From a candidate division CPR3 bacterium GWF2_35_18 (GTDB lineage Bacteria; Patescibacteriota; CPR3; GWF2-35-18), in the NCBI GenBank assembly GCA_001771135.1, contig MESW01000006.1, forward strand, positions 4,870 to 68,869: DNA of 64,000 nucleotides, written 5' to 3'. Under the pieces are notes generated by a model. The model was not told the DNA's origin and did not search any database. It was given only the letters and a program-made list of their open reading frames with translations. The position numbers and the translations under genes were made by a program. This document shows, piece by piece, positions 18,179 through 52,641 of the stretch. Numbering within the stretch: position 1 is the stretch's first letter; each line of letters begins with the position of its first letter.

Positions 18179-18255
18179 TGGTGCGCCCGGCAGGATTTGA
18201 ACCTGCAACCCCCAGCTCCGCAAGCTAGTGCTCTATCCAGTTGAGCTACGAGCGC
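18179..18255 (-). tRNA. tRNA-Arg (anticodon GCG as read)
   Basis: Revcomp GCGCUCG-UA-GCUC-AACUGGAUA-GAGC-A-CUAGC-UUGCGGA-GCUGG-GGGUU-GCAGG-UUCAAAU-CCUGC-CGGGCGC-A-CCA. U33 and G37 are present. Anticodon is GCG rather than the usual ACG. Confidence 0.75.
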
Positions 18256-19245: not shown

Positions 19246-19336
19246 CGGAGAGGCAGGGATTCGAACCCTGGATACCAGTTTTAACCAGTATAACGGTTTA
19301 GCAAACCGCCGCTTTCGGCCACTCAGCCACCTCTCC
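19243..19336 (-). tRNA. tRNA-Ser (anticodon GCU), type II
   Basis: Revcomp GGAGAGG-UG-GCU-GAGUGGCCGAA-AGC…GCGGU-UUGCUAA-ACCGU-long variable arm-CAGGGUUCGAAUCCCUG-CCUCUCC-G-CCA. 94 nt. Confidence 0.85.
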
Positions 19337-22131: not shown

Positions 22132-22164
22132 AATAATAAAGAAAAATTATAAGCGTAGTTTTTT

Positions 22165-22589
22165 GGTGGAGATGGGGGGATTTGCACCCCCGTCCAAAAG
22201 ATTTTCCCTAAAAAGTTCTACAGACATAGTCAGATGTTTTTACCTCCTATTCGCTTGCGCGGAGTTACTACTGGTAGATCATCTGACTTATCTATGATTC
22301 CAGTAGTAGTGTTGGGGTTTTAAAGTTCTTCATAATGCTTCCAACGGCAGCAAAACAAAGATTCTAGCTGTTTTATACTTCCAAGAATCCACTAGAAGAG
22401 ATTGCCTTGGAAATAGCTTATTTAGGCAAATGCAAAAGCATAAGAAGGAGCAGCAAAGCCGTCCTCGTTTCCTAAATCTGCATCGTTATAGTTTTTGGCA
22501 TTTAAAGCCTTATCTAGAAATTACGTGTTTACTAGAAAACCACGGTCTGCCTTTTTAAAGAGCTTCTTCTGTCAAAGCTAAACATCCCC
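22165..22589 (-). ncRNA. ssrA: tmRNA (ssrA)
   Basis: Reverse strand. 5' GGGGAUGUUUAGCUUUGACAG… 3' end …GGACGGGGGUGCAAAUCCCCCCAUCUCCACCA is a tRNA-Ala-like T-arm/acceptor (GGGGAUG pairs with CAUCUCC). Internal tag ORF GCC AAA AAC TAT AAC GAT GCA GAT TTA GGA AAC GAG GAC GGC TTT GCT GCT CCT TCT TAT GCT TTT GCA TTT GCC TAA gives (A)KNYNDADLGNEDGFAAPSYAFAFA*. smpB is adjacent. Confidence 0.8.
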
Positions 22590-34893: not shown

Positions 34894-35071
34894 TTTACAT
34901 GAAAAAGTATCTTTTTGGAAAATTTAAAGCTTTAGATATGAAATCACTATTATATTTGATCGTTTCGGCTCCATCCCAAAATTCTTGACAAAATTATAAC
35001 AATACTTTAACCTATCTATAGAGTTTATCTTTAATTCAGCTATAAAATAACTAATTCAGAGGGGGGTGAGA

Positions 35072-35473
35072 ATGAACTCTATGAAAAACTTAAGTAAAAA
35101 GGCTGGTCTCATTCTTGCTCAGGTAGTTACTGTTTTTTCAATTGCAGCCACTCAAATTTATGCCGCTACTATCTCTCAACCTATTTCTTCAGCAACACTT
35201 ACCGTCGGTGGTGTTGTTAACTTAATTGTAAAAATAGTTTTTGGAGTCGGTATTTTAATTTGTGTCATCTTCCTCGTTTTCTATGGTATTAAATATATTA
35301 CCGCCGGTGATGATGTAAAAGCCATTGAAGGGGCTAGAAAAGGAATCACAGGAGCAATTATTGGTTTAATTGTTATCCTATTAACCTTTGCAATTATTAA
35401 GTTAGTTGCAACTTTCTTGGGTGTTAATGGAGGAGATATCTTTAGTATTCTTCCTGACAGCTATAGCTTCTAA
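35072..35473 (+). CDS. small secreted 'pilin-like' protein, paralog 1 (signal peptide plus two-helix hairpin with the conserved YITAGDD…K…AIIGLIV motif)
   Basis: GGGGGG RBS 5 nt upstream of the ATG. Signal peptide …AATQIYA. Mature part: hydrophobic helix (NLIVKIVFGVGILICVIFLVFYGIKYITAGDDVKAIEGARKGITGAIIGLIVILLTFAIIKLV). The topology is as in TrbC/VirB2-type pilins. Paralogous to 37292..37930 and 37940..38479. Confidence 0.5.
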   Translation: MNSMKNLSKKAGLILAQVVTVFSIAATQIYAATISQPISSATLTVGGVVNLIVKIVFGVGILICVIFLVFYGIKYITAGDDVKAIEGARKGITGAIIGLIVILLTFAIIKLVATFLGVNGGDIFSILPDSYSF

Positions 35474-37291: not shown

Positions 37292-37930
37292 ATGAATAAT
37301 AAACTACCACTGAAACTCGCTGTAAATATTGTTATTACAATTGTTTCTTTATTATTCTTTTTTACCTTTATCCCTATCAACAACACTGCTTCCGCTGATG
37401 GCCCCTGTTTATGCGTTTCCGGAAAATGTGCTGGTTGTTCTGCGGCGGTAAATGATCTTGCGTGTGGACTAAATACAGATATCTGTGACAATGCGCAGAA
37501 AAGATACTCCTGTGAACATACTTTATTATACCAATCTCCTAGCAACCCAACCTTTGCCGCTCCAGGAAGATATCTTTGCAGTATCAGCTCTGATCCTGCT
37601 GATCGATATCCAACCACTTTAAATATGGCTTTAAAGGGTTCCTGGTCAGAGGTTTTCAAAACCTGCTTCTGCTCCGCCGGTCAAATGATTCAAAAGGTTA
37701 TTGATATCGCGATCTATTCGATCTCCGGTATTGCCCTAATAGTTTTAGCTTTGGGTGCGATTAAATATATTACCGCTCAAAACAATCCCGATAAAATCAT
37801 CGAGGCTAAAGACACAATTTTGGCTGGAATTGTAGGCCTTATTTTAGTTCTTTTCAGCCTAGCAATTATCAATCTTTTTCAGGGACAGCTTCCAGGTAGC
37901 TGGGGAATAAACTTTTTAAATATACCTTAA
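37292..37930 (+). CDS. small secreted 'pilin-like' protein, paralog 2, with a Cys-rich N-terminal domain
   Basis: Signal/TM MNNKLPLKLAVNIVITIVSLLFFFTFIPI. Cys-rich module DGPCLCVSGKCAGCSAAVNDLACGLNTDICDNAQKRYSCEH. C-terminal conserved IKYITAQNNPDKIIEAKDTILAGIVGLILVLFSLAII. Confidence 0.5.
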   Translation: MNNKLPLKLAVNIVITIVSLLFFFTFIPINNTASADGPCLCVSGKCAGCSAAVNDLACGLNTDICDNAQKRYSCEHTLLYQSPSNPTFAAPGRYLCSISSDPADRYPTTLNMALKGSWSEVFKTCFCSAGQMIQKVIDIAIYSISGIALIVLALGAIKYITAQNNPDKIIEAKDTILAGIVGLILVLFSLAIINLFQGQLPGSWGINFLNIP

Positions 37931-37939: not shown

Positions 37940-38479
37940 ATGAAACGTTTTACCATTAAAATCACTAAAATAATCTTAATGCTTTCATTACTCATTATTC
38001 CTCTGAGTAGCATTCTACAAAATCCGACACTGGCTGCCTGTACCTGTATAAATGATTTATGTGTTGCTGGAGCAGCCGGAGATTGTATCGCTTCTCGTGC
38101 TGGTGCTCCTTGTAAATATGACAATGACTGTTCAGTTCTTTCTGATGTTAACTGTACTGCTTGCAGTATTATTACCTTTGTTTTTAAAGTTATTCTTCCT
38201 TGGACTTTTGGTATTGGAATTTTAGCCGCGGTTGTTTTTCTAGTCATTGGCGGTATCCGTTACATAACAGCCGGTGATGATCCCAAAAAAATATCTGATG
38301 CTAAAGGGACTGTTACCTGGGCGGTAATCGGACTTGTCATTCTCATTATAGCCGGATCGATTGTTCGTCTTATATGGTTATTCTTTGGATTTGAAGAAGG
38401 AAAAATATTCTTAATCCCCACGACAACTGCTGACATACCAGGTCAGGAACCTGTCTTAGATTGTATCTTGTGTGAATAA
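37940..38479 (+). CDS. small secreted 'pilin-like' protein, paralog 3, with a Cys-rich N-terminal domain
   Basis: Signal peptide …NPTLA. Cys-rich module ACTCINDLCVAGAAGDCIASRAGAPCKYDNDCSVLSDVNCTAC. C-terminal conserved IRYITAGDDPKKISDAKGTVTWAVIGLVILIIAGSIV. Ends in a CILCE tail. Confidence 0.5.
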   Translation: MKRFTIKITKIILMLSLLIIPLSSILQNPTLAACTCINDLCVAGAAGDCIASRAGAPCKYDNDCSVLSDVNCTACSIITFVFKVILPWTFGIGILAAVVFLVIGGIRYITAGDDPKKISDAKGTVTWAVIGLVILIIAGSIVRLIWLFFGFEEGKIFLIPTTTADIPGQEPVLDCILCE

Positions 38480-38584: not shown

Positions 38585-41500
38585 ATGAAGAAAAAACTGC
38601 TTAAATTATTTCCATTCTTAGTCATTATTGCGACATTCCTTTCCCTATCGCAACCACTTTTTTCACCGGCTTTAATTGAGGCCAATCCTCCTGCAGATGT
38701 TTTTACCGGTCAAATTATCCCCGCTTTTATAGGTAACGAATATGATCCCTCTGTTGCTTTTCAGGAATTAGCCGGCTCGACAGTCTATGTTTTTGCGTAT
38801 GACAACTGGGAAGCAGCCTCTGATAGAATTGTTGTGGGAAATAAAGCAATTAAAACTCAGATAAGGGCTGATGGTTCTTTCCAGGTGATGGGACTTCCAC
38901 ATGCTTCTTATTATGGAGTATATTTTCCTTACGACCAATATGGTCCTTATGAACCACGAAATGGTAGTGGTACAGAATATTCTTATAGCTGTTCCTTTCC
39001 TTCCCCTCCACTGGGATCATGTGACGCCATTTGGGGAGGAAATGCCCCTGTTTATCCTATCCCTGGATTGGATGATTACTGCTGTGTTCCTCCGACTCGA
39101 GTAGCAAATACGATCAAAAATACTCCTTTCCGTGCTCCAGAACCAGATGATAATATTATCGATGTCTTTTCTTATGCTCAAGCTATATATAATGGAACCT
39201 CTCTTATTCCTACCCAAATAGCCGATGAATTTATCAAACCTGAAGGCAAGGCAATCTTCGTTACTTCAAATAATAAACTCGATATTGAAAACCATATCAA
39301 TGTTTTTCCCGTAGTTCCAACCTCAGTTTTAAAAATAAAAATTGATACTGAACAGTATGGAAATAGTATCGAAAATAGTGATAGAAGTCAGCTAAAACTT
39401 GGTTATGCAATCGCACACCGTCCGGTTTCAGTGACTGCAACTAGGATAGGATATTACCGTATTGAAATGTGTACTAATATCTTTGGGATACCCTGGGATT
39501 GTGGAATCGATTATGGTACAAAATATCTACCAATTGGTGGCCCAGCAATTACGGGAAGAACTGATGAAAATGGAAACTTTAAAGCCTATGCTCCTTCAGG
39601 ATATTATCATATTAAATATGTCTTTGAAGATGGAACTGAGAATATGGCTTTTCGAGAGATTGATGCCTTGGGAGAAAATCCTGAACCAGCCGACTCTAAT
39701 TTTGGAGTAACTACGGCTCTTTTAAAATCATTGTCTCAATGGAAAACTGATCCTACTGATACCTATATAGAAGACAAGCCTCAAAACGTAATAGACCCTC
39801 CTCTATACAAAGTTTATCGTAAAGGAGTAAGTATTTGGGGTTCAGTTACTAGACCATTTGTAGTTAAAGATAATAACCGCAGTCAATTCAATATACCAGT
39901 CTCTACGTTTTATACGGGAAATGATGGCTCTGATACAGGAGGACAAAGCAATACAATGCCAGATTTAGCGGTCTATACAGAAACGAACTATTCCGCGATT
40001 GATTTGGGAGTAGAGGTAAAACAAGATTTTGAAGCTGTAAATATGTTTAATAACTCCGGAGTTATTTCAGCAGACCATGATGATAACTATTGTGTAACGA
40101 ATAAAAATGCTTGTAACTTTTCCACTGTCAATAAATATGGGATTTTTTATATGCGTACCTCAGAAGCATATTCTTTTATTAATGGTAAAATAAGATTAGC
40201 CGGTTATAACTCAGCAACGAATGAAGTCTTTTTAGACAGTCTACCCCTCTATCCTGATGTTGGCAGTACTGATTATATTGAACCCCAACCACAAGCCCTA
40301 CAAGGATTAATAAGTGGACCAAATAGTTCATATAGTTATAACTTTTCCACAAAAAAACATGATAATAGAGGTATTTACGCAACTGTAAGAGATAATAGAG
40401 GACTGGCTGTACCTGGAGCTCAAGTTACTATTGCTCCTAATGAACCCGATCTAAAAAGCAGTAGTGTCGCTCAAACACAAGGAATTAGTTTATTAACTGA
40501 TGCTGATGGATCAGTGTATCTTTCTCCTCACGTCTTCTCTGAAAACGCAGAATTAATGACAGATTCGGCAACCTGTAACGGTTCTGATGATAGTGTTGCT
40601 GAAAATGGATATACCTTAATAGCTTCTCAAGGAGATACCTTTAAAGCTTCTCTTGATCTTACCAAAGATCAGATTTGTGATTCTATTGACGCGCAACAAT
40701 CTGTTGAAATTGCCAGTATTAAGGGAAAAAATGTCTACACTAACGAACCAGGAATGATTCAATTAGCCAAAGCATTACAGACAGATAATATTTTTACGGT
40801 AAGCGCCGCGGAAACCGAATCTGCTTGCCAAATATATAAACAAGATAGTAGGACGGTCGCTCCCTATGTCCCAAATGATCCAGTGGCAAACGAACAAGAA
40901 TGTGTGAATCTTTATGGATATTTTCTTTGTACACCAGACCCATTTGTTACGATACAAGGAGAATTTTTTGGCGGTGTTTCCGAAAATGTGATAGTTTTGG
41001 CTGCAGGTGATGCTTCTGGAAGCTATCGATCGACAGAAATTATTAAAGAAGAAGTTATTCCTAATCCGGAAACAACTCTTCATTCATCATCTGGATTTGG
41101 TGGTTTCTATGATACTACTAATAAAAAATTATATATTCACATTCCCTGCGCCTGGAAATCAGCTCAACTGAAAATAGAGGCTGGTGAGGAAAAAACAGAT
41201 AACTCTCAAGGAGATGTTGAACTTACAGTTATCGAACAGATCCGAGTTTATCTCATTCAATTCGGTGCAAATTTAGCCAAAGGTTTTGCTGGCGCAAGAG
41301 ATGCAGTTGACATTGGTGGGAGCTTTGATTACGACGAAGCTGTTGAAGAGATTGATGAAGTAGCAGAATCAGGTATCGACTCAATCATAAATAAAGGCCT
41401 TTCTGAGCGTCATTTTATAAAAGGTGATGCCCGAAAAGATGAAATGCAAGTCGCTATCTCAGAAACAAACGTTAGTGGTACACCCCCCAGCTATACCATA

Positions 41501-43654
41501 AATCCTCCTGCGGCCACATTCTTTTTGAAACCAGCTTGTCATGTTTTTGATTTGTTAAATTATCAAACTTGGGGTAATTTTGCTTGCAATCTCATTGAAG
41601 GTATGGGGAAATTTTTACAAGGCAGCATGGAATTTTTAGAAGATACTATTCTTCATACAAAGCCGATTTCAGAGCTATCCACAATTACTACATTATGGAA
41701 TCTTTCTCGTAATATTAGTAATGGAATAATTATTATTTTGGTTTTAATCTTTGCGGTTATGTATATGTTCCGAATGGATTCCAAAGATCTTCCTCTAAAA
41801 GAGCTTCCAATGAAAATTGTGAAGGCAGTGATCTTAATTAATCTCTCTCTCCTCTTCTGTCAGCTATTTATTGATATTTCTAATGTAGCTACAAGATCAA
41901 TATTCCTGATGGTTCAGAATGCTTTTTCACCTACTGGACAGACAGCTGTAATTAACTTTGCTTCTTTTGCAGCGATTATCACGACAATAGCTCTTTCGGC
42001 TGGAGCCTCAGGAGTGACAGCAGGCGTCGGTATAGCAACTGCAGTGGTTGCTTCTGGTGGAACAGCTTTAGTCGCTATAGGTATTGGAGTCATTGTTGCT
42101 GTCCTTGCCTTCTTTATGGCAATTATTACCTTAGCTGTAATTATTTTAATTCAATTTGTTGTTCGTTTAATGGTCATCTATCTTTGTGTTATTCTCGCTC
42201 CGCTTCGATTCCTTATGGGAATACTCCCTCAAGGCGAAAGTTTTGTAAAAATTTGGGATACAACCTTTTATAGTTTTGTTTTTATGCAGGTATTAGCGGC
42301 ATTATTTCTCAATGTCGGAATTGCTCTCATGTCTAATATCCCTAGTGGAGCTGGTTTAGAAATTGTTATTTCTCAATTGGCCGTAGGAGTAGCAATCTTT
42401 ATGGTGGCCTTGAAGTCTCCAAGCTTAATCCTACAACTTCTTGGTGGTGGTGGAATGGCTGGAAAATTAGCTGGTGGAGCTGGTGAGACTCTTACTGAAT
42501 GGAGACAGGGACAACAAGAAAAAATGGGTGCTGAAGCAGTTGCAGGTCGCGCAGGAGAATTCAAAGCTGAATCTCAAATGCATGGCGGTGGAGTAAGAGG
42601 CTTTGGAAAAGCGACCCTTTCCAGAGTGCCTATAATTTCAACTTACACAAAAGCAAAAAATGCGAACACTCAAGCTCAAGCAAATAGACTGTTCACAATG
42701 AAAAGAAACCAAGATATTCAGAAAGAAGGACAAGGATCAGTTCTAGCTCAAGGAACAAAAGGTCAAAGTGGAGATCTAACTCATATAGAACAAACCGAAG
42801 GCGGTAATGGTGTTTTACGATCGGTCAATGCTTGGGGTAGCGGTAGAAATGATCTATCTGCAGAAATTGATACCAACAGAAGTCCTACTGCTAATCAGTA
42901 TGTTCAAGATCATAATAGAGATATTGAGAATGATCAAGAGGTCAAAGATATTGACCAACAAGCAAATACTGAACAAACACAACAAATTGAAGCTATCATT
43001 AGACCTGATGTTGAAACTCAGGTAAATAATGAAATTAATGCTTCAAGCCCGACTTTAAGTCTTGATGATGCTTCTGTGACTCAAGCAGCCCAAAGTAGAA
43101 TTAACATGGGTGGAGCGGCTGGAAAGACGATTGATCAAGTGAAAGAAGACGTTAGAAGAGAAAGAACTGCAGCTAGAGCCCCAATGATGGCAGCCAAGAT
43201 GAAAGAACAACCTCGAATTGATCAAGCAATGGCAAGTCATCAAGCTGAAATCCAAAAGATTAAAGATGAAGCAAATAAAAAGAAAATGGAAGCACGCAAG
43301 AAAAAAGGTTATATCGTTACTGATCCTAATACTGGGACTGCTAAAGTCAATGGACAACAATTACTAGAGATTGCGGAACAAGAACTTAAAAATGATCCAA
43401 AACTGAAAAAAGAAGTTGAAAGACAGATAAAAGCGGCTGGACTAGCAAAGACTGTTAACGCAAAAGCTCTACACGCTGCAAAACTTGCTGAAGGAACTGA
43501 AGGTGGAGTAGAGGTTGGAACTCGACAACAAAGAAATATACAAAATCGCCGAAGACAAGCTGGAGCTGGACAAAGAGTCAATTATGCCGCCGCTGGAATG
43601 AATTATCGAACAGGAGATCTCTCTGGGCTTAATGAACCGGAAGAAAATATCTAA
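38585..43654 (+). CDS. giant (1689 aa) envelope protein: secreted N-terminal domain of about 1080 aa plus a C-terminal polytopic Gly/Ala-rich TM region (VirB6/TrbL-like) and a charged, Q-rich cytoplasmic tail
   Basis: Signal peptide MKKKLLKLFPFLVIIATFLSLSQPLFSPALIEA. About 7 TM helices between residues 1075 and 1360 (e.g. IIIILVLIFAVMYMF; ALSAGASGVTAGVGIATAVVASGGTALVAIGIGVIVAVLAFFMAIITLAVIILIQFVV; FYSFVFMQVLAALFLNVGIALMS). Then LLGGGGMAGKLAGGAGE and about 330 aa of K/E/Q-rich tail. No nucleotide-binding motif. Confidence 0.5.
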   Translation: MKKKLLKLFPFLVIIATFLSLSQPLFSPALIEANPPADVFTGQIIPAFIGNEYDPSVAFQELAGSTVYVFAYDNWEAASDRIVVGNKAIKTQIRADGSFQVMGLPHASYYGVYFPYDQYGPYEPRNGSGTEYSYSCSFPSPPLGSCDAIWGGNAPVYPIPGLDDYCCVPPTRVANTIKNTPFRAPEPDDNIIDVFSYAQAIYNGTSLIPTQIADEFIKPEGKAIFVTSNNKLDIENHINVFPVVPTSVLKIKIDTEQYGNSIENSDRSQLKLGYAIAHRPVSVTATRIGYYRIEMCTNIFGIPWDCGIDYGTKYLPIGGPAITGRTDENGNFKAYAPSGYYHIKYVFEDGTENMAFREIDALGENPEPADSNFGVTTALLKSLSQWKTDPTDTYIEDKPQNVIDPPLYKVYRKGVSIWGSVTRPFVVKDNNRSQFNIPVSTFYTGNDGSDTGGQSNTMPDLAVYTETNYSAIDLGVEVKQDFEAVNMFNNSGVISADHDDNYCVTNKNACNFSTVNKYGIFYMRTSEAYSFINGKIRLAGYNSATNEVFLDSLPLYPDVGSTDYIEPQPQALQGLISGPNSSYSYNFSTKKHDNRGIYATVRDNRGLAVPGAQVTIAPNEPDLKSSSVAQTQGISLLTDADGSVYLSPHVFSENAELMTDSATCNGSDDSVAENGYTLIASQGDTFKASLDLTKDQICDSIDAQQSVEIASIKGKNVYTNEPGMIQLAKALQTDNIFTVSAAETESACQIYKQDSRTVAPYVPNDPVANEQECVNLYGYFLCTPDPFVTIQGEFFGGVSENVIVLAAGDASGSYRSTEIIKEEVIPNPETTLHSSSGFGGFYDTTNKKLYIHIPCAWKSAQLKIEAGEEKTDNSQGDVELTVIEQIRVYLIQFGANLAKGFAGARDAVDIGGSFDYDEAVEEIDEVAESGIDSIINKGLSERHFIKGDARKDEMQVAISETNVSGTPPSYTINPPAATFFLKPACHVFDLLNYQTWGNFACNLIEGMGKFLQGSMEFLEDTILHTKPISELSTITTLWNLSRNISNGIIIILVLIFAVMYMFRMDSKDLPLKELPMKIVKAVILINLSLLFCQLFIDISNVATRSIFLMVQNAFSPTGQTAVINFASFAAIITTIALSAGASGVTAGVGIATAVVASGGTALVAIGIGVIVAVLAFFMAIITLAVIILIQFVVRLMVIYLCVILAPLRFLMGILPQGESFVKIWDTTFYSFVFMQVLAALFLNVGIALMSNIPSGAGLEIVISQLAVGVAIFMVALKSPSLILQLLGGGGMAGKLAGGAGETLTEWRQGQQEKMGAEAVAGRAGEFKAESQMHGGGVRGFGKATLSRVPIISTYTKAKNANTQAQANRLFTMKRNQDIQKEGQGSVLAQGTKGQSGDLTHIEQTEGGNGVLRSVNAWGSGRNDLSAEIDTNRSPTANQYVQDHNRDIENDQEVKDIDQQANTEQTQQIEAIIRPDVETQVNNEINASSPTLSLDDASVTQAAQSRINMGGAAGKTIDQVKEDVRRERTAARAPMMAAKMKEQPRIDQAMASHQAEIQKIKDEANKKKMEARKKKGYIVTDPNTGTAKVNGQQLLEIAEQELKNDPKLKKEVERQIKAAGLAKTVNAKALHAAKLAEGTEGGVEVGTRQQRNIQNRRRQAGAGQRVNYAAAGMNYRTGDLSGLNEPEENI

Positions 43655-43675: not shown

Positions 43676-43722
43676 TGAGCCGGCTTAAAATTATAAATTT
43701 TAAGCCGGCTCTTCTTTTTCCA
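43676..43722 (+). terminator. rho-independent terminator
   Basis: GAGCCGGCTTAAAATTataaATTTTAAGCCGGCTC followed by TTCTTTTT. Confidence 0.6.
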
Positions 43723-43837
43723 AACTCGAATAATTCCCTTCCAACATTTTGTTGATTTTGCTATTTAAAGGCTATTTATTGTATAATTTAAAGAGTTTTT
43801 AGATACATTAAGCTATAAACTATATGAAAGGAACAAC

Positions 43838-45406
43838 ATGAGCGGACCAGTGGAAGATATGGCACAACGTGCCGGCCAATATAAAGCCGAACAGGAAATA
43901 GCTCGTTTCAATCAGATGCGTGATGAATTAGACACAATTGAATCAGATCCGAATGCATCTGAAGGTAAGAAAGTCCAAGCAAGGAGGGGTTTTTTTGAAA
44001 GACTTCTGCATGCAAAGCGTGAAATCTATGATACGGGAACACTTGGTTATTTAATGGCCACACTTGGTTTTAATTGGCTACGCCAAACAATGCATCATGC
44101 TAAACATGCTTTTGTCAAAGGACAAATGGAAGTCCTAAAAACTGAAGCAGATGCAATCAAAGTAGAACACATGCAAACCGAACTTTTCAACATGCATGTA
44201 GAAGAAGGTCACACCATGCAAGTTCAGGATGCGTTTTTTGGATATACTGGAGGTGCGGTTAAGGAGCTTTCTAAACTTGCCGCGCACGCTTTCTGGGTTC
44301 GAGATGTTGATATTTATTGTCCTCTTGATCGTAAAGAGGTCGTTTCCGGACTAATCCATGGTCATGAAAATGCCTTTACCTTTCGCGAACTAGCTCGAGC
44401 CTATAACGCCCATTACGATCTTTATTATCCTATGTTGCTAGAAAAATTCGAAAAAGGCGAAATCAATGAAAAGGAGTTTCAAAAATATGGTTTTCACCGT
44501 CGCCAATCAGAAAGAATTAAAGGAATTGGAGCAATCAGAGAAGATGATGATCCCCGTAAAACTGACATGACCTTACCTGAGCTTTATTCTCTGGGAGTTT
44601 GGTTGTTTGGAGAAAAATCTAACCCCGATGAAGACAGAGTACTTGTAAAGAAAGAATCTGGGGTACTAAGAGATGAGCAACATTTAGAAATACCTGACAA
44701 TAAAAAATATATTGAAGAGTGGCAAAAAGCGACCGGATTTACCGAAGATGTGATGTATGGAGATCGAGATTATTGGACGAAGTGGATTATGTTTCAACTC
44801 AAAGCCCCAACCATGTTTAACGTTGCTTTAAGAAAAATGGGGTATAAAGTTGATTTTCATGGAGAAATTAATGATGAAAAAGCAAGAAAGAATGCCAAAT
44901 ATGGAGATGTGATTGGTAAATACTACGGACATAACAATGACTATTACCACCGATCACTCTCTATGGGTGTCGGAGGACAGATTGGACGAGCCCAAATGCG
45001 TAATCGACAAGAGGCCGAAGATCGACTAAGTGAAGTTGCGGAGCTCGTTGAATTACTTAAGAAAGAACATCCAACCACAGATGAACAAACTCGCATTGCC
45101 GAACTTGTAGATAGAGAAGATGCCCGAATGGATGCTGAAAGTATTGATCAGGGAATCTTGAATACCGTTGCAGATACTATTGTTAGGAGAAAAGCCCAAG
45201 AAGAACACTGGGAACTGGATCCACACAAACAAACAAAAGAAGAGAGAACAAAAGTTGAAAATTATCGGAAGTGGGTTCAAAAAAGACTCCAACAAAGATG
45301 GGCGGAATCTCAAGGTAAAAGAGCAACAAATGTTGGAGAAGTTCGTGACTTTGCCGATAAACAAGCTTGGGATATCTGGGATGACGCTAGTTCTGAAGAA
45401 CAATAA
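43838..45406 (+). CDS. hypothetical soluble protein (522 aa) embedded in the pilin-like/giant-protein locus
   Basis: No signal peptide, TM helix or Walker motif. His/Trp/Tyr-rich with many acidic residues. Unrecognised family. Confidence 0.4.
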   Translation: MSGPVEDMAQRAGQYKAEQEIARFNQMRDELDTIESDPNASEGKKVQARRGFFERLLHAKREIYDTGTLGYLMATLGFNWLRQTMHHAKHAFVKGQMEVLKTEADAIKVEHMQTELFNMHVEEGHTMQVQDAFFGYTGGAVKELSKLAAHAFWVRDVDIYCPLDRKEVVSGLIHGHENAFTFRELARAYNAHYDLYYPMLLEKFEKGEINEKEFQKYGFHRRQSERIKGIGAIREDDDPRKTDMTLPELYSLGVWLFGEKSNPDEDRVLVKKESGVLRDEQHLEIPDNKKYIEEWQKATGFTEDVMYGDRDYWTKWIMFQLKAPTMFNVALRKMGYKVDFHGEINDEKARKNAKYGDVIGKYYGHNNDYYHRSLSMGVGGQIGRAQMRNRQEAEDRLSEVAELVELLKKEHPTTDEQTRIAELVDREDARMDAESIDQGILNTVADTIVRRKAQEEHWELDPHKQTKEERTKVENYRKWVQKRLQQRWAESQGKRATNVGEVRDFADKQAWDIWDDASSEEQ

Positions 45407-45543: not shown

Positions 45544-48500
45544 ATGAAAGTGCCTTCAAAAAGGTTAAAAAAACTCATTTCACTAGGTTTGAATATCTTA
45601 CTTACTCTTTCTTTAATATTACAATCAAGCCCAGCTTTCACCACTCCAGTAAATGCTTATGACCCATTTTCATTAACTCCGGAAAAGCTAGGAATTTTTA
45701 AAGGTTTACCCGATAAATTCAAAGGGTTTTTTGATTCCGCTTCCCAAAAATTAAATGGTTTATTCAAAACGCCATCTGGAACTACAGGTGGAGCATCTGA
45801 AGGCTCACCCGCTCAACCACTTCCAGACGAAGAACACCCTATTATCCCAATCTCAGCTGATTTAATTCAAGTAGATGCTACATGGAGTGCTAGCTGTGTT
45901 CCCGATATGCCTCCTGATGAATATTTAGCATCTGGTGGTGGAGGTGGAACCTGTTATATGACTCCATATGAACCTCCGGTACCACAAAAACCAATTGAAG
46001 ATAATGGAAGTTGTGCTGAAATAAACATAATTTCTGATCGTAGTTGTGTCATTGCTCCGGGACGAAGTGTGAATTTTGTAGTTGAAATTGTCAACAATTG
46101 TGACACCACTTTTACAATTTTGAGTATTTTTGATGACCATAAAGGTCTTGTGAATATTAAAGAAACAAAAACTGTGGGTCCTGGAGAAAAAATCACCACT
46201 CTTCCCTACGATATTGTGGTTAAAGAACCACTTATAAATACCGTAACTTTAACAGCTCAATTTAGCGATTATAATCCTTTTATTATCGAAAAAATAGGGA
46301 CACTGATTACTATTGACCCTTTGGGTTGCCAGATTCATCCCGTTTGTTTAGCCCTTTCATATGAAGCTGAACCAACCTGTGTAGAAAATTCTGGCGATCC
46401 TTCTAATTTCATCGCTAGAATTAACAATAATTGCACAAATCAAATAACCAGCACCCAACTGATAACCTCTTTTAACACTCAGAATCTTGGAACTTTAGTT
46501 GCTGGGGAAACTGTTATTGAACTCGGAGAAAAAAATATCACTTCAAATATAACAGAAACGGCTAATTTAACAGCCATCATGGATACTTATTTTATTAATG
46601 TAACAGACACAGCAACTGTTTCCTTATCTCCTTTCCCTGTAGGATGTGTGACAAATCCACCTAGTACTTGTATTTCTTTTCACGAAGTTGCTATTCCTTC
46701 TTGTGTTGAAAACTCTGGAGAACAATCAACTTTTACCATTTCAGTAACAAATAACTGTACTGAGAATTTCACAATTAGCAGTATTACGGATACTTTGGCT
46801 CCTGGAGGAACAATAGATATCACAGGACACGAATCTGTCCCGGTTTCAGGAAGTCAGTCATTTAGTTACAATTTAACAATTAACAATCCTGTTTCTGGAA
46901 CTGCTAACCTGACCGGAGTTTTGGCTTCTGGAACAACAATAACAGCAACAACAACTTCTGGTGTCTCCGTTGGAAACTGTATATCCTTAAATGAATTAAA
47001 TCTTCCTCTTGGACTTCATAGTTTAAATAAAAATACAAACATTTCTAATCTAATATCTAAAATAAAAGATTTTATCCCAAATGCTGTAAATCATATTAAA
47101 GAAATCTTCACTCCAGACAATGTTACTGCAGCTACCCCAATTTGTGATACCTGTCAAACAGAGAATTACGGTTGGGATGAAAATCCTCCTGCCGGTTTTG
47201 ATGACGAATATAATGATTATTATCAAATTGAACCTGGCATTTGTATGGTCGAATGCAACCCCATGTCTGATCCTTTTGAAAGTGACTCCTGTCCGGATCC
47301 ATATCAATGTCCTGAAAGAGTAGCCTCCTATACCAATTATGGCAATTGTGATGAAGAGGTTAAGACTTGTACTGTACCAATACTGGGAACGCAATTTGAT
47401 GCTTGTTGGGGATTGTATCCTCCTGCTGCTCATACCCCTTATGATTATACTGATCCCGATGCCTCATGTACGCTAGACGACTTACCCACAACAACGCCAA
47501 CTGGTGAAACTGTTGGTGGAGACCCACAAATATATGAAGTTTTCTCGCAAAATATCACTCAATATAACTACGAAGAGTGTAATAGACATGACAGCATAAG
47601 TAAATATAATCGAGCCTGTGCCCCACAATATTCATATACCAAAGCAGATATGCCCACCTGCTATCCAACAGATCTGGGAACAAGCTATGGAGCAACTGCT
47701 CGCAAATTAAATGGTTGTAATGAACTCATTGAACCTACTGAACTTGATGATGGAACACTTGTTGGTGTTTCTCCACCCCAAAGTCCTAACAAAGCGGACG
47801 CATACGATTGTAGTGAAAAAACATGTAACGCTACAGACGGACCACGTTGTGTGCAGGGAACTGAAGCAGTCTGTCGAAAAGCAATTGAAATTAAAACCTG
47901 TGAACAGCTTATCACTACAACTTCTGAACCTCCTGCTGATAATTGGGGGGAAAACTGCGTTGTCCAAGCACTTCCAGCACAAGAGATAACTTGTGGAAAT
48001 GCAGAAGGTTGTCCTGCTGATGGCGGATCAGAATACGGATGTAGTGTTGAAAATATCTGTACTCAAGACGTAAGTTATTGGGATGGAAATTCAGAAGATC
48101 ATGATTGTGATGATGACGGAAGTGCTGATTGTTGTTCAGAATGTGAGTTTGAAGGAGGAGTTGAAGTTTGTAATGATAATCCAGGAAATAATGATTGTGG
48201 TGGAAGCTGTTGTAATTGTGATGATGGGTACGAGGGTTGTTTAAATTTTGATACCAGTAGTAATCCTGAATCAATCCCTCCTACTCCAGACGCATGCAGT
48301 GGTGGAAATTGTTCCTGCGAAGAAGGTTCTAGTGCGGGAGAATGTGCTAACGCTGATAACACTCTTTGCGCTGATAATGGAGAAACTGGCTGTGCTGATT
48401 TGGAAGATTGTTGTAAGCTCAAAGAACATTGGGAGTGGCCAATAACTTCTGATGCACTTGACTGTGCTATCTATCAATATACTGAAAGACATATGATGTA

Positions 48501-50610
48501 TCGCGTTCTTTATTATAGCAATATGATTACAATTCCCATTCGCGTCAGAAATGTAAGTGATCATGTAATTAAAGAACCCGTAACAATGACAGTAGACCTT
48601 CCTGATTTTCTTGATCTGTATGATGTTAATCCCTATCCTGAAGATTATGTGGGAACTCCTGAAGAGGATCCTGAAAATAATTGGGTGGCGGTGGAAGCTG
48701 AACTCCCAGGAATTCCTGATTTAATTAATTATATGGCTACACTACATATGAACTGGACAGATGGAACATCCGGAATTGCGAATGGTCCTCATGGAGGAAC
48801 AATCACTTGGACTTTTTGGAATGAAGATGTAGAAGTTGGTTTACCTATCGGGGCTGATTATACTTTTACTCTAAGAGTGGTTCCTGCCGACAAAAACAGT
48901 GCTGGTCTATCCTTTTATGGAAATCACCGTATTTCATATAACGGAACGCAAGACTCTGAACTCAACCACTACATAAATAATTTATATTCTGATAACCGCT
49001 TGATAAATCTAGAGTACAAAACACAGTGGTCTGATTCTGAAGTTGTAGAGCTTCAATCTTTTAGAATTGGAAGCGATGTTGTCTCTAAAGCTTCTCCTGG
49101 ATGTGGAGGTTACGATGAAGATGGTAATCCTCTTACAGACGGTTGTTCTGTAGATCCAAACTCTCGACCTTTTGGCTGGCCAGTCACTGGAACTATTGCT
49201 CAAGATTGGGGTGGTATTGAAGACTATAACACTGATTCTGATATCACCTGGAGTAATCCTTTAGCTGAAGAATGGGGTCCCAGATACGGAGAAGGTGAAA
49301 AATATCAGATTTGTGAGAATGAAAGTAATGAATACTGGTCACACCAAGGAATAGATCTTGTTCCGATTGAAGGAGAAGCCTCTGAAACTGAGATTTATTC
49401 TACTCATGCTGGAAATGTAGTAGCAGCTGAATGTTTTGAAGATGAGAGAGGTTGCAGTGTCACGGTAAGCTCAAATGTTGATGATGATTGTTGGCCGGAA
49501 TTTGTGACTACATATAATAATTTAATTCCTGAACTACTAAGAGTTTTACCCAATGAATATGTTCCCCGACATAAATTGTTGGGTCTCATGGGAGCAACGG
49601 GTAAAGGAGCTGGTGGAACTGATTATACTGGATTTACCCATACTAACTATCAAATCCGTTATCCAGTCACTGAAAAGCTAGACCTCAATAATGATAATTG
49701 TCCGGCTTATCCCCCACCTTTAGACGCAGATAATCCTGATGGGTATAATACACCAGCAACTTATTTTCCAATTGAACAGGACAACTGTCATGGATACGAG
49801 GATAATCCGGAAGATCCGGAATATGTTGACCCTATTACAAATGACTTTTACAACCTCAGAAAACCAGAAGAAGATTCTGCAGATCTAAGCAAAGACGAAG
49901 AATACGAATGTAACCTCGACCCATACATATGTGAAACCCCATTTCCTAATCGCGCCTATTCTACCTGTCAATGTGTCACTGAAGATTGTGATGTAGAAAT
50001 GATCGATTATCCTCCATACTTCTTTTGCGAAAATAAACGTCAGGATCAAGATGTTAGTAGCTGTTACTATGATAATCCTACTGGATTCCAAAAAGACTTT
50101 GGCGGTAATAGTATCCCTATGAGTTGTCCTATTCAAGAACCAGAACCATTCTGTCTTGGAATATGGAGTAGTGTAAATGTTCCGTTCAGCCATGCTGGTT
50201 TTGACTGGATAACCCATGCAGGACCGACAGTTGGAACTGAAGTTTTTTCTGTAGTTGATGGTGAAGTAATTATTAGTGGCTGTAATGACGGTTACGGAAA
50301 TATGGTTCTTATCACTGATGGTACTTATGATTATTATTACGGACATTTAGCTCCTGGTACCAATGTCGCGATGGGACCAATATCCTCGGGAACGCTAGTG
50401 GGAGCAATAGGAATGACACCTACATGCGCTGGAGAACATTCCACAGGGCCTCATCTCCACTTTGAAGTGAGAACTGCAGGAGCACACTGTGGTTATGCCA
50501 ATCCAGCCTGTACCATCGATCCCATCTCAATTGGTATTTGCGGCCCCTCGCTTGGTGCTGGTGAATATTCTGGAGTCGCTGAACATTGCGATAACTGTAG
50601 TTGTGAATAA
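45544..50610 (+). CDS. giant (1688 aa) secreted protein: three tandem Cys-bounded Ig-like repeats, a Cys-rich central region and two C-terminal M23/LytM peptidase domains
   Basis: Signal peptide …SSPAFTTPVNA. Three repeats of about 95 aa (C.E.N..S.R/D…I.V.NNC…F.I.SI.D…GC) at residues about 157-480. The central region (about 800-960) carries over 40 Cys (…CDDDGSADCCSECEFEGGVEVCNDNPGNNDCGGSCCNCDDGYEGC…). First M23-like module HQGIDLV…THAGNVV…LGLMGATGKG…THTNYQIRY (about 1290-1390). Second, with full motifs: HAGFDW…GTEVFSVVDGEVI…GYGNMVLITDG…YYYGHL…GPHLHFEV (about 1550-1640). Confidence 0.7.
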   Translation: MKVPSKRLKKLISLGLNILLTLSLILQSSPAFTTPVNAYDPFSLTPEKLGIFKGLPDKFKGFFDSASQKLNGLFKTPSGTTGGASEGSPAQPLPDEEHPIIPISADLIQVDATWSASCVPDMPPDEYLASGGGGGTCYMTPYEPPVPQKPIEDNGSCAEINIISDRSCVIAPGRSVNFVVEIVNNCDTTFTILSIFDDHKGLVNIKETKTVGPGEKITTLPYDIVVKEPLINTVTLTAQFSDYNPFIIEKIGTLITIDPLGCQIHPVCLALSYEAEPTCVENSGDPSNFIARINNNCTNQITSTQLITSFNTQNLGTLVAGETVIELGEKNITSNITETANLTAIMDTYFINVTDTATVSLSPFPVGCVTNPPSTCISFHEVAIPSCVENSGEQSTFTISVTNNCTENFTISSITDTLAPGGTIDITGHESVPVSGSQSFSYNLTINNPVSGTANLTGVLASGTTITATTTSGVSVGNCISLNELNLPLGLHSLNKNTNISNLISKIKDFIPNAVNHIKEIFTPDNVTAATPICDTCQTENYGWDENPPAGFDDEYNDYYQIEPGICMVECNPMSDPFESDSCPDPYQCPERVASYTNYGNCDEEVKTCTVPILGTQFDACWGLYPPAAHTPYDYTDPDASCTLDDLPTTTPTGETVGGDPQIYEVFSQNITQYNYEECNRHDSISKYNRACAPQYSYTKADMPTCYPTDLGTSYGATARKLNGCNELIEPTELDDGTLVGVSPPQSPNKADAYDCSEKTCNATDGPRCVQGTEAVCRKAIEIKTCEQLITTTSEPPADNWGENCVVQALPAQEITCGNAEGCPADGGSEYGCSVENICTQDVSYWDGNSEDHDCDDDGSADCCSECEFEGGVEVCNDNPGNNDCGGSCCNCDDGYEGCLNFDTSSNPESIPPTPDACSGGNCSCEEGSSAGECANADNTLCADNGETGCADLEDCCKLKEHWEWPITSDALDCAIYQYTERHMMYRVLYYSNMITIPIRVRNVSDHVIKEPVTMTVDLPDFLDLYDVNPYPEDYVGTPEEDPENNWVAVEAELPGIPDLINYMATLHMNWTDGTSGIANGPHGGTITWTFWNEDVEVGLPIGADYTFTLRVVPADKNSAGLSFYGNHRISYNGTQDSELNHYINNLYSDNRLINLEYKTQWSDSEVVELQSFRIGSDVVSKASPGCGGYDEDGNPLTDGCSVDPNSRPFGWPVTGTIAQDWGGIEDYNTDSDITWSNPLAEEWGPRYGEGEKYQICENESNEYWSHQGIDLVPIEGEASETEIYSTHAGNVVAAECFEDERGCSVTVSSNVDDDCWPEFVTTYNNLIPELLRVLPNEYVPRHKLLGLMGATGKGAGGTDYTGFTHTNYQIRYPVTEKLDLNNDNCPAYPPPLDADNPDGYNTPATYFPIEQDNCHGYEDNPEDPEYVDPITNDFYNLRKPEEDSADLSKDEEYECNLDPYICETPFPNRAYSTCQCVTEDCDVEMIDYPPYFFCENKRQDQDVSSCYYDNPTGFQKDFGGNSIPMSCPIQEPEPFCLGIWSSVNVPFSHAGFDWITHAGPTVGTEVFSVVDGEVIISGCNDGYGNMVLITDGTYDYYYGHLAPGTNVAMGPISSGTLVGAIGMTPTCAGEHSTGPHLHFEVRTAGAHCGYANPACTIDPISIGICGPSLGAGEYSGVAEHCDNCSCE

Positions 50611-50619: not shown

Positions 50620-51744
50620 ATGAAAAGCATTTTAAATAAAATTAAATTAAATATCTCCAAATTAAAAGATAAACTCCAAGAATCTAAGCTGTTACACAAA
50701 TGGGAAGAAAACCTTTCCGATAAGGGAAAACAAATATGTAAGTATATAAAAACCCATCCAAAACAATCTTTAGTGGTGGCTTCGGTAATAGTTATAATAA
50801 TAACAATTGGAGTATATCTGGTTTCCATACTCATAAAACCAAAACCGATTACTACAACCCCCCACCCTTTTACCGAAGTTACGACCTATAAATTAAATTC
50901 CGTTCCGACCAAAATAGAATATGGTAAATTTAATTCGGAATTAAGAGAGTTTCCTTCTAATATCTCTATCTATCAAACAAAAGAAAAGCCTTTATCAGGA
51001 TTACAAGAAATCGGTAATTTACAAAGGATTCTTCAAACCTTAGGATTTACTTCTGATGCCCGAAATTATTCTAACAAAAAAGCGATTGCCTATTATGAAA
51101 AAGGTAAATCTCTAACAGTAACGTTGATCGGCGATAAAATATCTTTCAGTACAGGATTGAATGTCGAACCAGAGCTTCTACAACAAACAAACGACATTCG
51201 TTCGCTATCTGATTTACTCCAAACTGGAAAATATTTTTTTAGTGAAAATGGGTTAAATTTCGAGATACAATTTTCTGATCCAAAAACCGTATACAGTAGA
51301 ATGGGAGAGCTTGGTCTTTATGAAATTAACAATGTTGAACAGGCGGATGTTGTAACCTATATTTTACAGCCGCAAATTGAATCTTTAAATATTGCTAATA
51401 ACCAATTTCTGCCTTATATAAGCTTGACAAAAAATGGCAAAATTGTCGCCTTTTCTATTTTTAACAAAAAAATCGTTGCGGCTACTAAAAATCCGGTGAT
51501 AAGTATAAGTAAGCTGAAAAAATCGATCCAAAATAATGAAGCTGTCTCTTTAAGTAAAATTGAAACCAAATATCTAGAGCCTCAAAGTATTGTGATAAAA
51601 AGTACTCAAGTTCTTTACTATTATAATGAGGCACAGGAAGTTTTAACGCCTGTTGTTACTCTGCAAGTAACCCTTAAAAAAGATGGTGAAGAAAAAGAAG
51701 CTACGCTATATCTACCCGCTTTTGAAAACAAATATTACTATTAA
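50620..51744 (+). CDS. hypothetical single-pass membrane protein (374 aa)
   Basis: N-terminal cytoplasmic region of about 45 aa, one TM helix (LVVASVIVIIITIGVYLVSILI), then an extracytoplasmic beta-rich domain. No recognisable motif. Confidence 0.4.
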   Translation: MKSILNKIKLNISKLKDKLQESKLLHKWEENLSDKGKQICKYIKTHPKQSLVVASVIVIIITIGVYLVSILIKPKPITTTPHPFTEVTTYKLNSVPTKIEYGKFNSELREFPSNISIYQTKEKPLSGLQEIGNLQRILQTLGFTSDARNYSNKKAIAYYEKGKSLTVTLIGDKISFSTGLNVEPELLQQTNDIRSLSDLLQTGKYFFSENGLNFEIQFSDPKTVYSRMGELGLYEINNVEQADVVTYILQPQIESLNIANNQFLPYISLTKNGKIVAFSIFNKKIVAATKNPVISISKLKKSIQNNEAVSLSKIETKYLEPQSIVIKSTQVLYYYNEAQEVLTPVVTLQVTLKKDGEEKEATLYLPAFENKYYY

Positions 51745-51747: not shown

Positions 51748-52641
51748 ATGAAGATAAAATTATTTAGCTTAAAATTAATCCTTATTGCTACTCTACCATT
51801 GATATTTTCGTATTCTACCCCAACGATTGCCGATGAGGAAAAAATTCTTTACTGTGAATTTATTCATTCTCCTTCTCAAGATGGTTTTATCAGAAGTGGC
51901 GGGCCTATTAATACTGATAGTGGTGCCCGTTATAGACCTTTAGCTATTCGTGACCCTGATTGTACAGATATTGTTAGAGATATCTCCTTCTATCCCGGAG
52001 AGTATAATCTTCCCCATTCTGAACCTGGAGGATTTATTCCTGGTGGACCAGGAGGAAGTTGGAATGATTGTACTGCATGTAATCCTGATCCTGCTTCTGT
52101 AGTTGCCGAACCATGGGTTGAGGCAAAATTTATCGATCTTGCAACACGTTGGTTTGGAGGAGTAGGAACTCCCAGAATAGATATGTATGATGAAGTTGTT
52201 GCTGCCGCAGAAGCGGCGGGAATGGATCCTATTTTTGCCATATCTATTTGGCTTCATGAATCTGGAGCAAGCAATTATGAGGGAATTTGTAGAGTATTAG
52301 GTCATGAAGATCCTAATTCTGGATATTGTACGCGTATTCAAGACTTTGGGGTAAATCTAGAATCAATCACAACTAAAATTGAAGCTCCGGGAGTATATCC
52401 TGACAATGTTACCGAAGATCATTTTGAAGAACAGCTCTCTCACTATGTAGATTTACCAGCATGGTATCTTACTATGTGTGACGTAAACGCAGTTTCTTGT
52501 CCTATGGAAGTATTTGGCTCGATGTTTAGATGGGGAGGTTGTCCACCTGAGACTGTAGACACATATAGCGTTGGAATCCAAGAAATATATGAAGGATTCT
52601 TTCAAGCAGGAGCATTCCCTTGCTATCCTATTAATCTTTAA
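51748..52641 (+). CDS. secreted protein with a lysozyme-like / Rpf-type transglycosylase-like segment
   Basis: Signal peptide. AISIWLHESGASNYEGICRVLGHEDPNSGYC…QDFG resembles the catalytic E-S-G…N…G region of Rpf/SLT-type transglycosylases. Several conserved Cys. Weak assignment. Confidence 0.3.
   Translation: MKIKLFSLKLILIATLPLIFSYSTPTIADEEKILYCEFIHSPSQDGFIRSGGPINTDSGARYRPLAIRDPDCTDIVRDISFYPGEYNLPHSEPGGFIPGGPGGSWNDCTACNPDPASVVAEPWVEAKFIDLATRWFGGVGTPRIDMYDEVVAAAEAAGMDPIFAISIWLHESGASNYEGICRVLGHEDPNSGYCTRIQDFGVNLESITTKIEAPGVYPDNVTEDHFEEQLSHYVDLPAWYLTMCDVNAVSCPMEVFGSMFRWGGCPPETVDTYSVGIQEIYEGFFQAGAFPCYPINL

Follow-up and report, generated by a model that had tools for sequence, protein, structure and literature searches.

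The gene analysed here lies at positions 45544–50610 (plus strand) of a 64,000-nucleotide stretch of the genome of candidate division CPR3 bacterium GWF2_35_18 (contig MESW01000006.1; hereafter the window, to which all coordinates refer unless another locus is named). It encodes a 1688-residue protein with a signal peptide, a conserved N-terminal 'head', three immunoglobulin (Ig)-like repeats, a cysteine-rich core, a degenerate M23/LytM domain and a complete M23 domain, an order from repeats to complete M23 which had been proposed in an earlier sequence-only reading of this DNA and which is supported by our analysis. We consider it probable, at roughly 0.7, that this protein is the peptidoglycan-opening enzyme belonging to this CPR3 bacterium's type IV secretion system (T4SS), i.e. 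a T4SS-coupled wall hydrolase, and the T4SS in question is of the Patescibacteria type which is related to the conjugation machines of monoderms.

The open reading frame (ORF) is complete and uninterrupted from ATG to stop, and the protein has been deposited under the label 'Peptidase M23' (KKP69555.1 / OGB63027.1 / UniProt A0A0G0E2V0; candidate division CPR3 bacterium GW2011_GWF2_35_18). Because an identical 1688-residue protein is encoded on 11 contigs which were assembled independently from metagenomes of Rifle aquifer groundwater, as well as in two GenBank records, it is neither a fragment nor the product of a mis-assembly, the outcome which the sequence-only reading had named as counting against it. 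One full-length homolog, P0001 (1673 residues), shares 69% amino acid identity and is encoded on a contig from another sample with the same gene order. Word-indexed homolog searches using the whole protein, the N-terminal 874 residues or an alignment of the repeats returned P0001 and near-identical fragments, or nothing, and scans of genome and metagenome contigs with protein alignment found no relatives. Cysteine accounts for 4.86% of the residues (82 in all) compared to 0.84% for the other ORFs of the window, and each of the 82 is conserved in P0001, which argues for their being structural disulfides.

Domain organisation of the 1688-residue protein

The N-terminus (residues 1–38; 45544–45657) is, as judged by inspection, a Sec-type signal peptide, with five basic residues preceding a hydrophobic stretch at residues 8–26, the sole hydrophobic segment of the protein, and a VNA-Y site after it (PVNA/YDP). 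It is on these three features that the description of the protein as secreted depends. The head follows at residues 39–150 (45658–45993) and is conserved in 13 members of the family described below, reading GIF.GLP..FKGFF....Q.LNGLF....GGA, then a proline-rich stretch, and then ADLIQVDATWSA..C.PD.PPDE. At the end of another contig (locus L015, 2–721, plus strand) a protein of at least 239 residues carries the head only, 44% identical to residues 24–128 of the window protein and followed by a cysteine- and glycine-rich part, and the family member encoded at the same locus, P0007, lacks the head. Together these suggest that the head is a separable module.

The three repeats occupy residues 154–263 (46003–46332), 264–369 (46333–46650) and 370–481 (46651–46986), and align with one another. 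Their length had been put at about 95 residues in the sequence-only reading and is in fact 106–112, while the view of them as three cysteine-bounded, Ig-like units stands: four cysteines and an NNC motif do not vary among the six copies that the window protein and P0001 contain, and an AlphaFold2 model of repeat 3 made from these six copies (mean predicted local distance difference test score, pLDDT, 90.5) is an all-beta sandwich with six long strands. Foldseek matched this model to generic Ig-like and E-set domains at template modelling scores of 0.5–0.66 (TRAP subunits, ApaG, the VesB Ig domain, CARDB and complement MG domains), and Pfam gave weak sub-threshold matches to NPCBM_assoc and DUF11. 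The term Ig-like therefore holds at the level of the modelled fold. The suggestion that the protein is an adhesin does not carry over, as the fold is a generic one and the repeats had no profile match to known bacterial adhesin families and no database relatives. The copies are only 24–31% identical to each other and were missed by both self-BLAST and Tandem Repeats Finder, with no tandem repeats beneath them at the DNA level, and we therefore regard them as ancient duplications. Between the window protein and P0001 the repeats are 61.1% identical.

The cysteine-rich core (residues 531–974; 47134–48465) contains 43 cysteines, in agreement with the earlier count of more than 40, all of which are conserved in P0001, and the peptide quoted from it in the sequence-only reading is present at residues 855–899. 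It includes the block RKLNGCN...C.ATDGPRCV....VCRKAI, of which RKLNGCN and VCRKAI are common to P0003–P0007. An EGF-like identity, which had been proposed for this core, was not supported, as residues 531–975 matched no Pfam family even at E ≤ 10, and the only match in the Protein Data Bank (PDB) was a non-significant one to a centipede toxin (E 0.34). The CC doublets of the core also do not fit the cysteine spacing of EGF domains. The central region which follows (residues 975–1194; 48466–49125) is marked by the motifs Y.YTER..Y.V.Y.SN.I.I...RN.S.H, LPDFLD and HYINNL.SDNRL.NLEY and is 76.8% identical to P0001. It is matched in full by P0004, with the best stretches of P0003 and P0005–P0007 beginning at residues 1083–1106, and from its sequence pattern we suspect that it forms a beta-sandwich.

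The two M23/LytM modules lie at residues 1195–1380 (module 1; 49126–49683) and, up to and including the stop codon, 1513–1688 (module 2; 50080–50610), the latter having a cysteine-rich C-terminal end. They were compared at five functional columns equivalent to LytM H210, D214, H260, H291 and H293 (the HxxxD motif, the catalytic histidine of YxHL, and HxH) by alignment with LytM and lysostaphin. Module 2 has all five catalytic and zinc-binding residues (HDHHH: H1550, D1554, H1601, H1637 and H1639), and scores 69.5 bits with Pfam PF01551 over residues 1561–1647 compared to a gathering score of 28.7. It can be aligned with M23 enzymes of solved structure, with the catalytic residues also aligning with those of NMB0315, and it has the M23/LytM beta fold in an AlphaFold2 model of both modules, which consists of two confident beta cores. 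Module 2 is thus complete, as had been proposed, and the failure of its motifs to align with the LytM catalytic residues, which would have told against that proposal, was not seen.

Module 1 reads HDNHN in the same columns (H1267, D1271, N1326, H1366 and N1368), with asparagine replacing the catalytic histidine and one zinc-ligand histidine. Scanned alone it scores 21.7 bits, under the Pfam M23 gathering score, and was correctly described as degenerate. Since its counterparts in P0003 and P0004 exceed this score (30.3 and 31.6 bits, respectively), we regard module 1 as homologous to M23 but divergent. A single-sequence search of the PDB with module 1 found nothing relevant and a search with the family profile gave weak M23 matches only (E ~0.01). 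In the two-module model it forms a beta core with a pLDDT of 72–86, joined to module 2 by a linker of low pLDDT, and the best structural matches of this model include Csd1, Csd2, EnvC and DipM, with the M23/LytM matches not being assignable to module 1 alone. P0001 has the same residues as the window protein in the catalytic columns of both modules. No other part of the protein is as well conserved as module 1, which has 81.7% identity to P0001 compared to 64.8% for module 2, and which is therefore under strong constraint.

These data also bear on the suggestion that the protein is a non-enzymatic scaffold or adhesin, a structural fibre of the surface or pilus base in which both M23 modules only bind. 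The model for this is SpoIIQ of Bacillus subtilis, which has a degenerate LytM domain and is part of the SpoIIIA–SpoIIQ trans-envelope channel. SpoIIQ, however, is small and membrane-anchored, pairs with SpoIIIAH and has no active M23 domain, and its relationship to the window protein is one of fold only. Although module 2 is only 65% identical between the window protein and P0001, its five catalytic and zinc residues are all retained in the two, which is the pattern of an active enzyme, and we think the scaffold explanation extremely unlikely.

A Patescibacteria family with a natural fusion

When residues 975–1545 were used in an exhaustive HMMER search of 1.84 billion representative proteins, only 20 proteins were recovered at E ≤ 1e-3. 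The named members are from CPR3, WWE3, CPR1 or 'Patescibacteria group' bacteria, with one partial member labelled Chloroflexota. The head is common to the full-length members P0003 to P0016, with the exception of P0007, and module 1 plus a C-terminal tail are found in every member once two fragments (P0017 and P0019) and P0020, which matches over a short stretch, are set aside. The degenerate module, the head and the tail, which ends in Y-x-N-P, define what on sequence grounds is a rare family of the Patescibacteria. Module 1 varies across this family in the five columns, with P0010 retaining HDHHH and others having HDNHH (P0003), HDHNH (P0009), HTNRL (P0007) or HDHKR (P0008).

In at least 15 homologs the Y-x-N-P motif is followed directly by the stop codon and forms the extreme C-terminus. 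In the window protein the tail is part of an acidic, cysteine-containing linker of low pLDDT (residues 1381–1512; 49684–50079) which ends in YPPYFFCENKRQDQDVSSCYYDNP, and the motif is internal (YYDNP at residues 1508–1512, with YDNP at residues 1509–1512 encoded by 50068–50079) as the chain runs on into the M23 domain of module 2. P0014 and P0020 have other extensions directly after the same NP point. The internal motif marks the fusion joint, and a picture of the two modules as an equivalent tandem pair is not supported: module 1 is the ancient core of the family and module 2 a lineage-specific addition.

Other members carry other lytic or glycan-binding domains, namely GHL15 (P0003), a GH5-like domain (P0020), and Amidase_2 with CBM60 (P0018 and P0021). 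The last two are distant members (locus L013, 244–2727) in which Amidase_2 is N-terminal and the M23-like module is interrupted, after the Y.RL motif and before the C-terminal strand, by an insertion of about 300 residues which contains CBM60. Other loci encode, in addition to the family member, a separate second hydrolase which combines a canonical M23 domain with other modules, and it is to the M23 domains of these that module 2 is most similar (E 1e-12 for L010, and 3e-9 for both L013 and L016). The L010 second hydrolase has a cysteine-bounded Ig-like repeat resembling the ones in the window protein, and its M23 domain shares with module 2 the unusual ending CTI(D/N)P..I(G/V).CGP.

A further part of one of these second hydrolases is found as a separate gene in the window (51748–52641, plus strand), which encodes a secreted, cysteine-rich protein of 297 residues that we refer to as domain X. 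This is 36% identical (E 2e-10) to the segment following the M23 domain in the 779-residue hydrolase of L016, with which it shares the motif IWL(H/E)ESGASN (IWLHESGASN in the window protein), and it had no match in Pfam, NCBIfam or the PDB. It is a guess on our part that this motif is a lysozyme-like catalytic Glu-Ser motif. L016 therefore has a family protein, a membrane protein we call the partner, and a protein with M23 plus domain X, and the window has a family protein fused to M23, the partner, and domain X alone. Such a fusion is independent evidence, of the Rosetta-stone type, that the LytM-like family protein and an active M23 domain work together.

T4SS genes beside the family gene

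The loci of other family members, of which we inspected eight, provide the decisive evidence. In L016, which encodes the family member P0013, the whole cluster is contiguous and co-directional, with two pilin genes, the gene for a 1455-residue homolog of the giant protein encoded upstream of our gene, the family member, a 347-residue partner, the 779-residue M23 protein and a 187-residue protein, continuing into the genes for PrgI, a CarboxypepD_reg protein, a TraC-like protein and VirB4. The first part of this repeats the order of the window, i.e. pilins, giant polytopic protein, family member and partner. In L010, L011, L012 and L013 the family member is followed by a second hydrolase and PrgI, with the TraC-like and VirB4 genes present wherever the contig reaches that far. 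The family gene is thus contiguous with PrgI, TraC-like and VirB4 genes in L016, L010, L011 and L013, and in L012 PrgI is seen before the contig ends. In these five loci T4SS genes are found within 10 kb after the family gene.

In all seven of the other loci in which the contig continues beyond the family gene, the next gene, or the one after a small PF05635 gene, encodes a bitopic membrane protein of about 330 residues. Homology with the partner in the window was seen for L001 (E 1e-147), L015 (7e-16), L010 (5e-13), L011 (3e-12), L016 (4e-4) and L009 (1e-3), and the partner gene was called in L010–L012. No relative of the partner was found in Pfam or the PDB. We note that the small PF05635 (23S_rRNA_IVP, four-helix-bundle) genes occur in L010 (13963–14328), L015 (5225–5593) and L012 (7500–7892), and in two out of these three loci lie between the family member and the partner; there are none in the window. 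In L008, L010 and L011 the minus strand upstream of the family gene has a conserved divergent block of wall-building and anchoring genes, which includes a GT4 glycosyltransferase, an RNaseH-like protein, one or more YkuD L,D-transpeptidases, a surface protein of about 1200 residues with CarboxypepD_reg-type repeats, and a sortase.

In the window itself the partner is a 374-residue protein (50620–51744, plus strand) with one transmembrane segment (residues 47–77), whose gene starts 9 nt after the stop codon of our gene and is followed after 3 nt by the gene for domain X. Upstream on the same strand is the gene for a soluble and highly charged protein of 522 residues (43838–45406), which has no transmembrane segment or family match, is only 27% identical to its counterpart beside P0001 in L001 (compared to 69% for P0001 itself), and corresponds to nothing at the same place in L016. 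A terminator-like hairpin with a 16-bp stem (43677–43711) and a promoter-like site (43758–43787) suggest that the 522-, 1688-, 374- and 297-residue proteins are encoded by one transcription unit, of which the 522-residue protein is likely to be the first. It should be noted that the promoter and terminator scans gave numbers near background (73 promoter-like sites with 60 expected, and 13 terminator-like sites with 11.6 expected), and of their results we made use of the 16-bp-stem hairpin only.

Further upstream is the gene for a 1689-residue protein (38585–43654, plus strand). A signal peptide and roughly 1000 external residues are followed in this protein by at least six transmembrane segments (residues 1040–1279) and, at the C-terminus, by some 400 residues of charged, low-complexity tail. 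It is homologous to the 1455-residue protein (E 1e-36 and 7e-26) whose gene in L016 is flanked by those of the pilins and the family member, and has only a weak CarboxypepD_reg match in Pfam. We regard it as a candidate for a highly divergent VirB6-like channel subunit. The 1688- and 1689-residue proteins are not paralogues, as there is no similarity between them. This gene is preceded by those of two VirB2-like T4SS pilins (37292–37930 and 37940–38479, plus strand; Pfam PF18895), which are homologs of the L016 pilins, and there is a third VirB2-like pilin gene at 35066–35473 (PF18895, T4SS_pilin) as well as a gene for a PMT-type glycosyltransferase. The secreted products of the locus are cysteine-rich (4.7% and 5.6% for the two adjacent pilins, 4.9% for the 1688-residue protein and 3.4% for domain X) compared to an average of 0.84% for the rest of the window, which hints at a disulfide-stabilised extracellular apparatus.

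VirB4 was not found in the 64-kb window. On the same contig past the end of the window, dnaN is followed by minus-strand genes for VirB4 (619 residues), a TraC-like protein (224 residues) and a PrgI/CarboxypepD_reg fusion (572 residues), located at 11698–15999 of L014 which is equivalent to ~64.6–68.9 kb in the numbering of the window. The T4SS genes of this genome are therefore split into two blocks which flank the dnaA–dnaN origin region. The family gene is encoded within T4SS gene clusters at the homolog loci and beside the pilin genes and the candidate VirB6-like gene here. This supports the proposal that the enzyme serves the apparatus encoded upstream, with the same order running into PrgI, TraC-like and VirB4 genes in L016 and T4SS core genes in four further loci. 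The check on co-occurrence with pilin-like genes, which the sequence-only reading had advised, found pilins in L016 in the same position relative to the family gene.

This arrangement can also be read differently, with the protein being a housekeeping autolysin or division factor in which the M23 domain is accompanied by a LytM-type regulatory domain, and its proximity to T4SS genes a coincidence of the origin-proximal region. M23/LytM proteins are indeed common in division, where EnvC, NlpD and DipM are examples that include some of our structural matches, and in this genome it is housekeeping genes that part the family gene from VirB4. The window contains, in addition, a gene for a SpoIID-type wall enzyme. 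Against this, the adjacency to PrgI, TraC-like and VirB4 genes recurs in five loci whose proteins are from different 50%-identity clusters, one fully contiguous cluster reproduces the window order of pilin, giant protein, family member and partner, and no division genes (ftsEX or ftsZ) were seen beside the family gene in any of the loci inspected. We consider this explanation to be very unlikely.

The window is otherwise a region of ordinary chromosome in which dnaG, rpoD, dnaA, rnpA and yidC are also present, along with genes for the tmRNA (22164–22589, minus strand) and six tRNAs (at 3804–3875, 14486–14706, 18024–18255 and 19246–19336 (−)). The SpoIID-domain protein mentioned above is a lytic-transglycosylase-type wall enzyme of 600 residues (26774–28576, minus strand), and near its gene are those for two DUF6541 membrane proteins and glycosyltransferases, forming an envelope-remodelling set upstream of the pilin genes.

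A proposed role in opening the wall

The Patescibacteria T4SS is reported to be of the MPF-FATA (monoderm conjugation) type, often located beside dnaA/dnaN and with arrays of VirB2-like pilins, and usually to have no recognisable VirB1 (PMC12102498). The closest characterised analogue of the 1688-residue protein is PrgK of the Enterococcus faecalis pCF10 T4SS, which is of the MPF-FATA class; TraG of pIP501 and CwlT of ICEBs1 are related enzymes. In PrgK an inactive LytM domain which contains no metal acts with the CHAP domain to down-regulate the muramidase domain, and the protein docks on PrgL, a bitopic protein which directs it to the machine (PMC11323569). A cytoplasmic part at the N-terminus, a transmembrane anchor, an active muramidase and a CHAP domain are present in PrgK, whereas the protein described here has no SLT/muramidase or CHAP domain and its active domain would be M23, and it adds the head, the three Ig-like repeats and the 43-cysteine core. 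PrgK's LytM domain lacks both HxxxD and HxH, whereas module 1 has kept HxxxD and the first histidine of HxH. The LytM fold is all that the two share, with no sequence homology detected outside the M23 fold. The same proposed job, the local opening of peptidoglycan, is done in diderm T4SSs by the VirB1-type lytic transglycosylases, and here the likeness is a functional analogy only as VirB1 has a lysozyme-like glycosidase fold and chemistry, whereas our protein is a predicted zinc peptidase with no VirB1/SLT domain. As it lacks SLT/muramidase and CHAP domains, it would work like PrgK and VirB1 but is not, by its sequence, a member of their families.

Inactive LytM domains which work with an active wall hydrolase, as we propose here, are also known from Csd1–Csd2 of Helicobacter pylori, EnvC, NlpD and DipM. 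These are separate, small periplasmic proteins involved in cell shape or division, whereas in our case both domains are found on one giant polypeptide linked to secretion. Among the Patescibacteria, Ca. Southlakia epibionticum (Saccharibacteria) has a T4SS locus with wall-hydrolase genes near the replication origin, like that of our bacterium, in which the peptidase and lysozyme genes beside virB4 are reported to be essential for epibiotic growth (PMC12102498). These genes are from a different Patescibacteria class and were compared by description, in which the architecture reported here is not mentioned, and M23 domains near Patescibacteria T4SS genes are noted in passing in the same paper (PMC12102498). 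The deposited 'Peptidase M23' label, T4SS-linked wall hydrolases and degenerate LytM domains are therefore already known. In the literature we searched there was no description of the family (head, LytM-like module and Y-x-N-P tail), the partner, the modular lytic heads or the fusion.

The mechanism we propose is as follows. The protein would be exported by Sec, as its signal peptide indicates, and then kept at the machine by its head, probably via the co-transcribed bitopic partner, as the conserved pairing of the two genes suggests; from this we infer that the head docks on the partner or on the machine itself. The three Ig-like domains, of which the fold of one has been modelled, and the disulfide-braced core may form a rigid extracellular stalk that would place the two M23/LytM domains at its far end. 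Module 2, given its residues and fold, is predicted to cut the peptide cross-links of peptidoglycan. Module 1 probably binds peptidoglycan stems or gates neighbouring hydrolases, by analogy with PrgK, EnvC, DipM and Csd2. A substrate-binding role in place of catalysis had been suggested for it before, and binding or regulation would fit both its high conservation and the precedent of the degenerate LytM domain in PrgK (PMC11323569). In related lineages the same functions are divided between a LytM-only family protein and another protein with several hydrolase modules (M23 plus domain X), and here the active M23 domain has been fused to the family protein, with domain X left as the 297-residue ORF. 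The wall that is cut may be the cell's own, during assembly of the channel or pilus, or that of a host at the contact site, and the sequence gives no choice between them.

Several points weigh against the assignment of the protein to the T4SS. It is not contiguous with VirB4 in this genome, the two being some 14 kb apart across oriC and dnaA–dnaN (the intervening genes are of the nucleotide-kinase and capsule/O-antigen types plus dnaA, rnpA, yidC and dnaN), and the strong terminator-like hairpin parts its gene from the unit encoding the pilins and the 1689-residue protein. Searches of Pfam and NCBIfam found no SLT, CHAP or VirB1 homology in the protein, and the partner is without detectable similarity to VirB8 or PrgL. 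M23 domains also serve in cell division and predation, and for this reason the enzymology alone does not point to a T4SS. Finally, the family is known only from metagenomes and our inspection covered only eight loci, in three of which (L008, L009 and L015) the contig runs out too early for a T4SS gene to be seen.

A second explanation overlaps with ours and differs only in the wall that is targeted. In this the protein is a host-directed weapon or feeding tool whose distal M23 domain cuts host peptidoglycan at the contact site for attachment, nutrient uptake or killing, and the T4SS neighbourhood reflects co-regulation or delivery. The extracellular part of the protein extends over about 1650 residues and carries the active domain at the opposite end from the conserved head, there is no membrane anchor besides the signal peptide, and the Ig-like repeats and module 2 evolve faster than module 1. 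The diverse modules accumulated by family members (GHL15, Amidase_2, CBM60 and GH5-like) are as might be expected if varied targets were being tracked. Patescibacteria have moreover been reported to live as epibionts, with a T4SS-adjacent peptidase and lysozyme being essential for epibiotic growth (PMC12102498). On the other hand, CPR3 has no known host, the sequence offers no sign of specificity for a foreign wall, and the characterised T4SS hydrolases of monoderms act on the wall of the donor itself (PMC11323569). There is also no evident toxin–immunity pair, as the partner is a membrane protein conserved with the family and not an obvious inhibitor. We regard a host-directed role as possible but rather unlikely, and retain the T4SS-coupled wall hydrolase as our preferred interpretation.

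A more far-reaching version of this interpretation, which we offer speculatively and would not expect to hold, is that the head, degenerate LytM domain and Y-x-N-P tail constitute an undescribed structural subunit peculiar to the T4SS in CPR3, WWE3 and CPR1, which with the partner would form a disulfide-braced extracellular arm carrying interchangeable lytic heads (M23, amidase and glycosidases) beyond the cell's own envelope so as to breach the host wall. If this were true, the arm would be the piece that turns a conjugation-type machine into the host-piercing device of an epibiont.

A large part of bacterial diversity belongs to the Patescibacteria, or candidate phyla radiation (CPR), and attachment to other cells appears to be the way of life of most of them. 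The T4SS which they encode near the origin is essential in the one lineage tested, and little is known of its extracellular parts or of its passage through the wall (PMC12102498). Our analysis links a rare and unannotated family, together with a membrane partner, to this system. The family carries what appear to be exchangeable wall-degrading heads, and in the CPR3 bacterium a natural fusion ties the degenerate LytM domain to an M23 domain of the active type. These proteins provide candidates for the wall-opening step, including the wall concerned (self or host), the bond that is cut and the partner that tethers the enzyme, and would add a second T4SS hydrolase with a degenerate LytM domain to the first case, PrgK.

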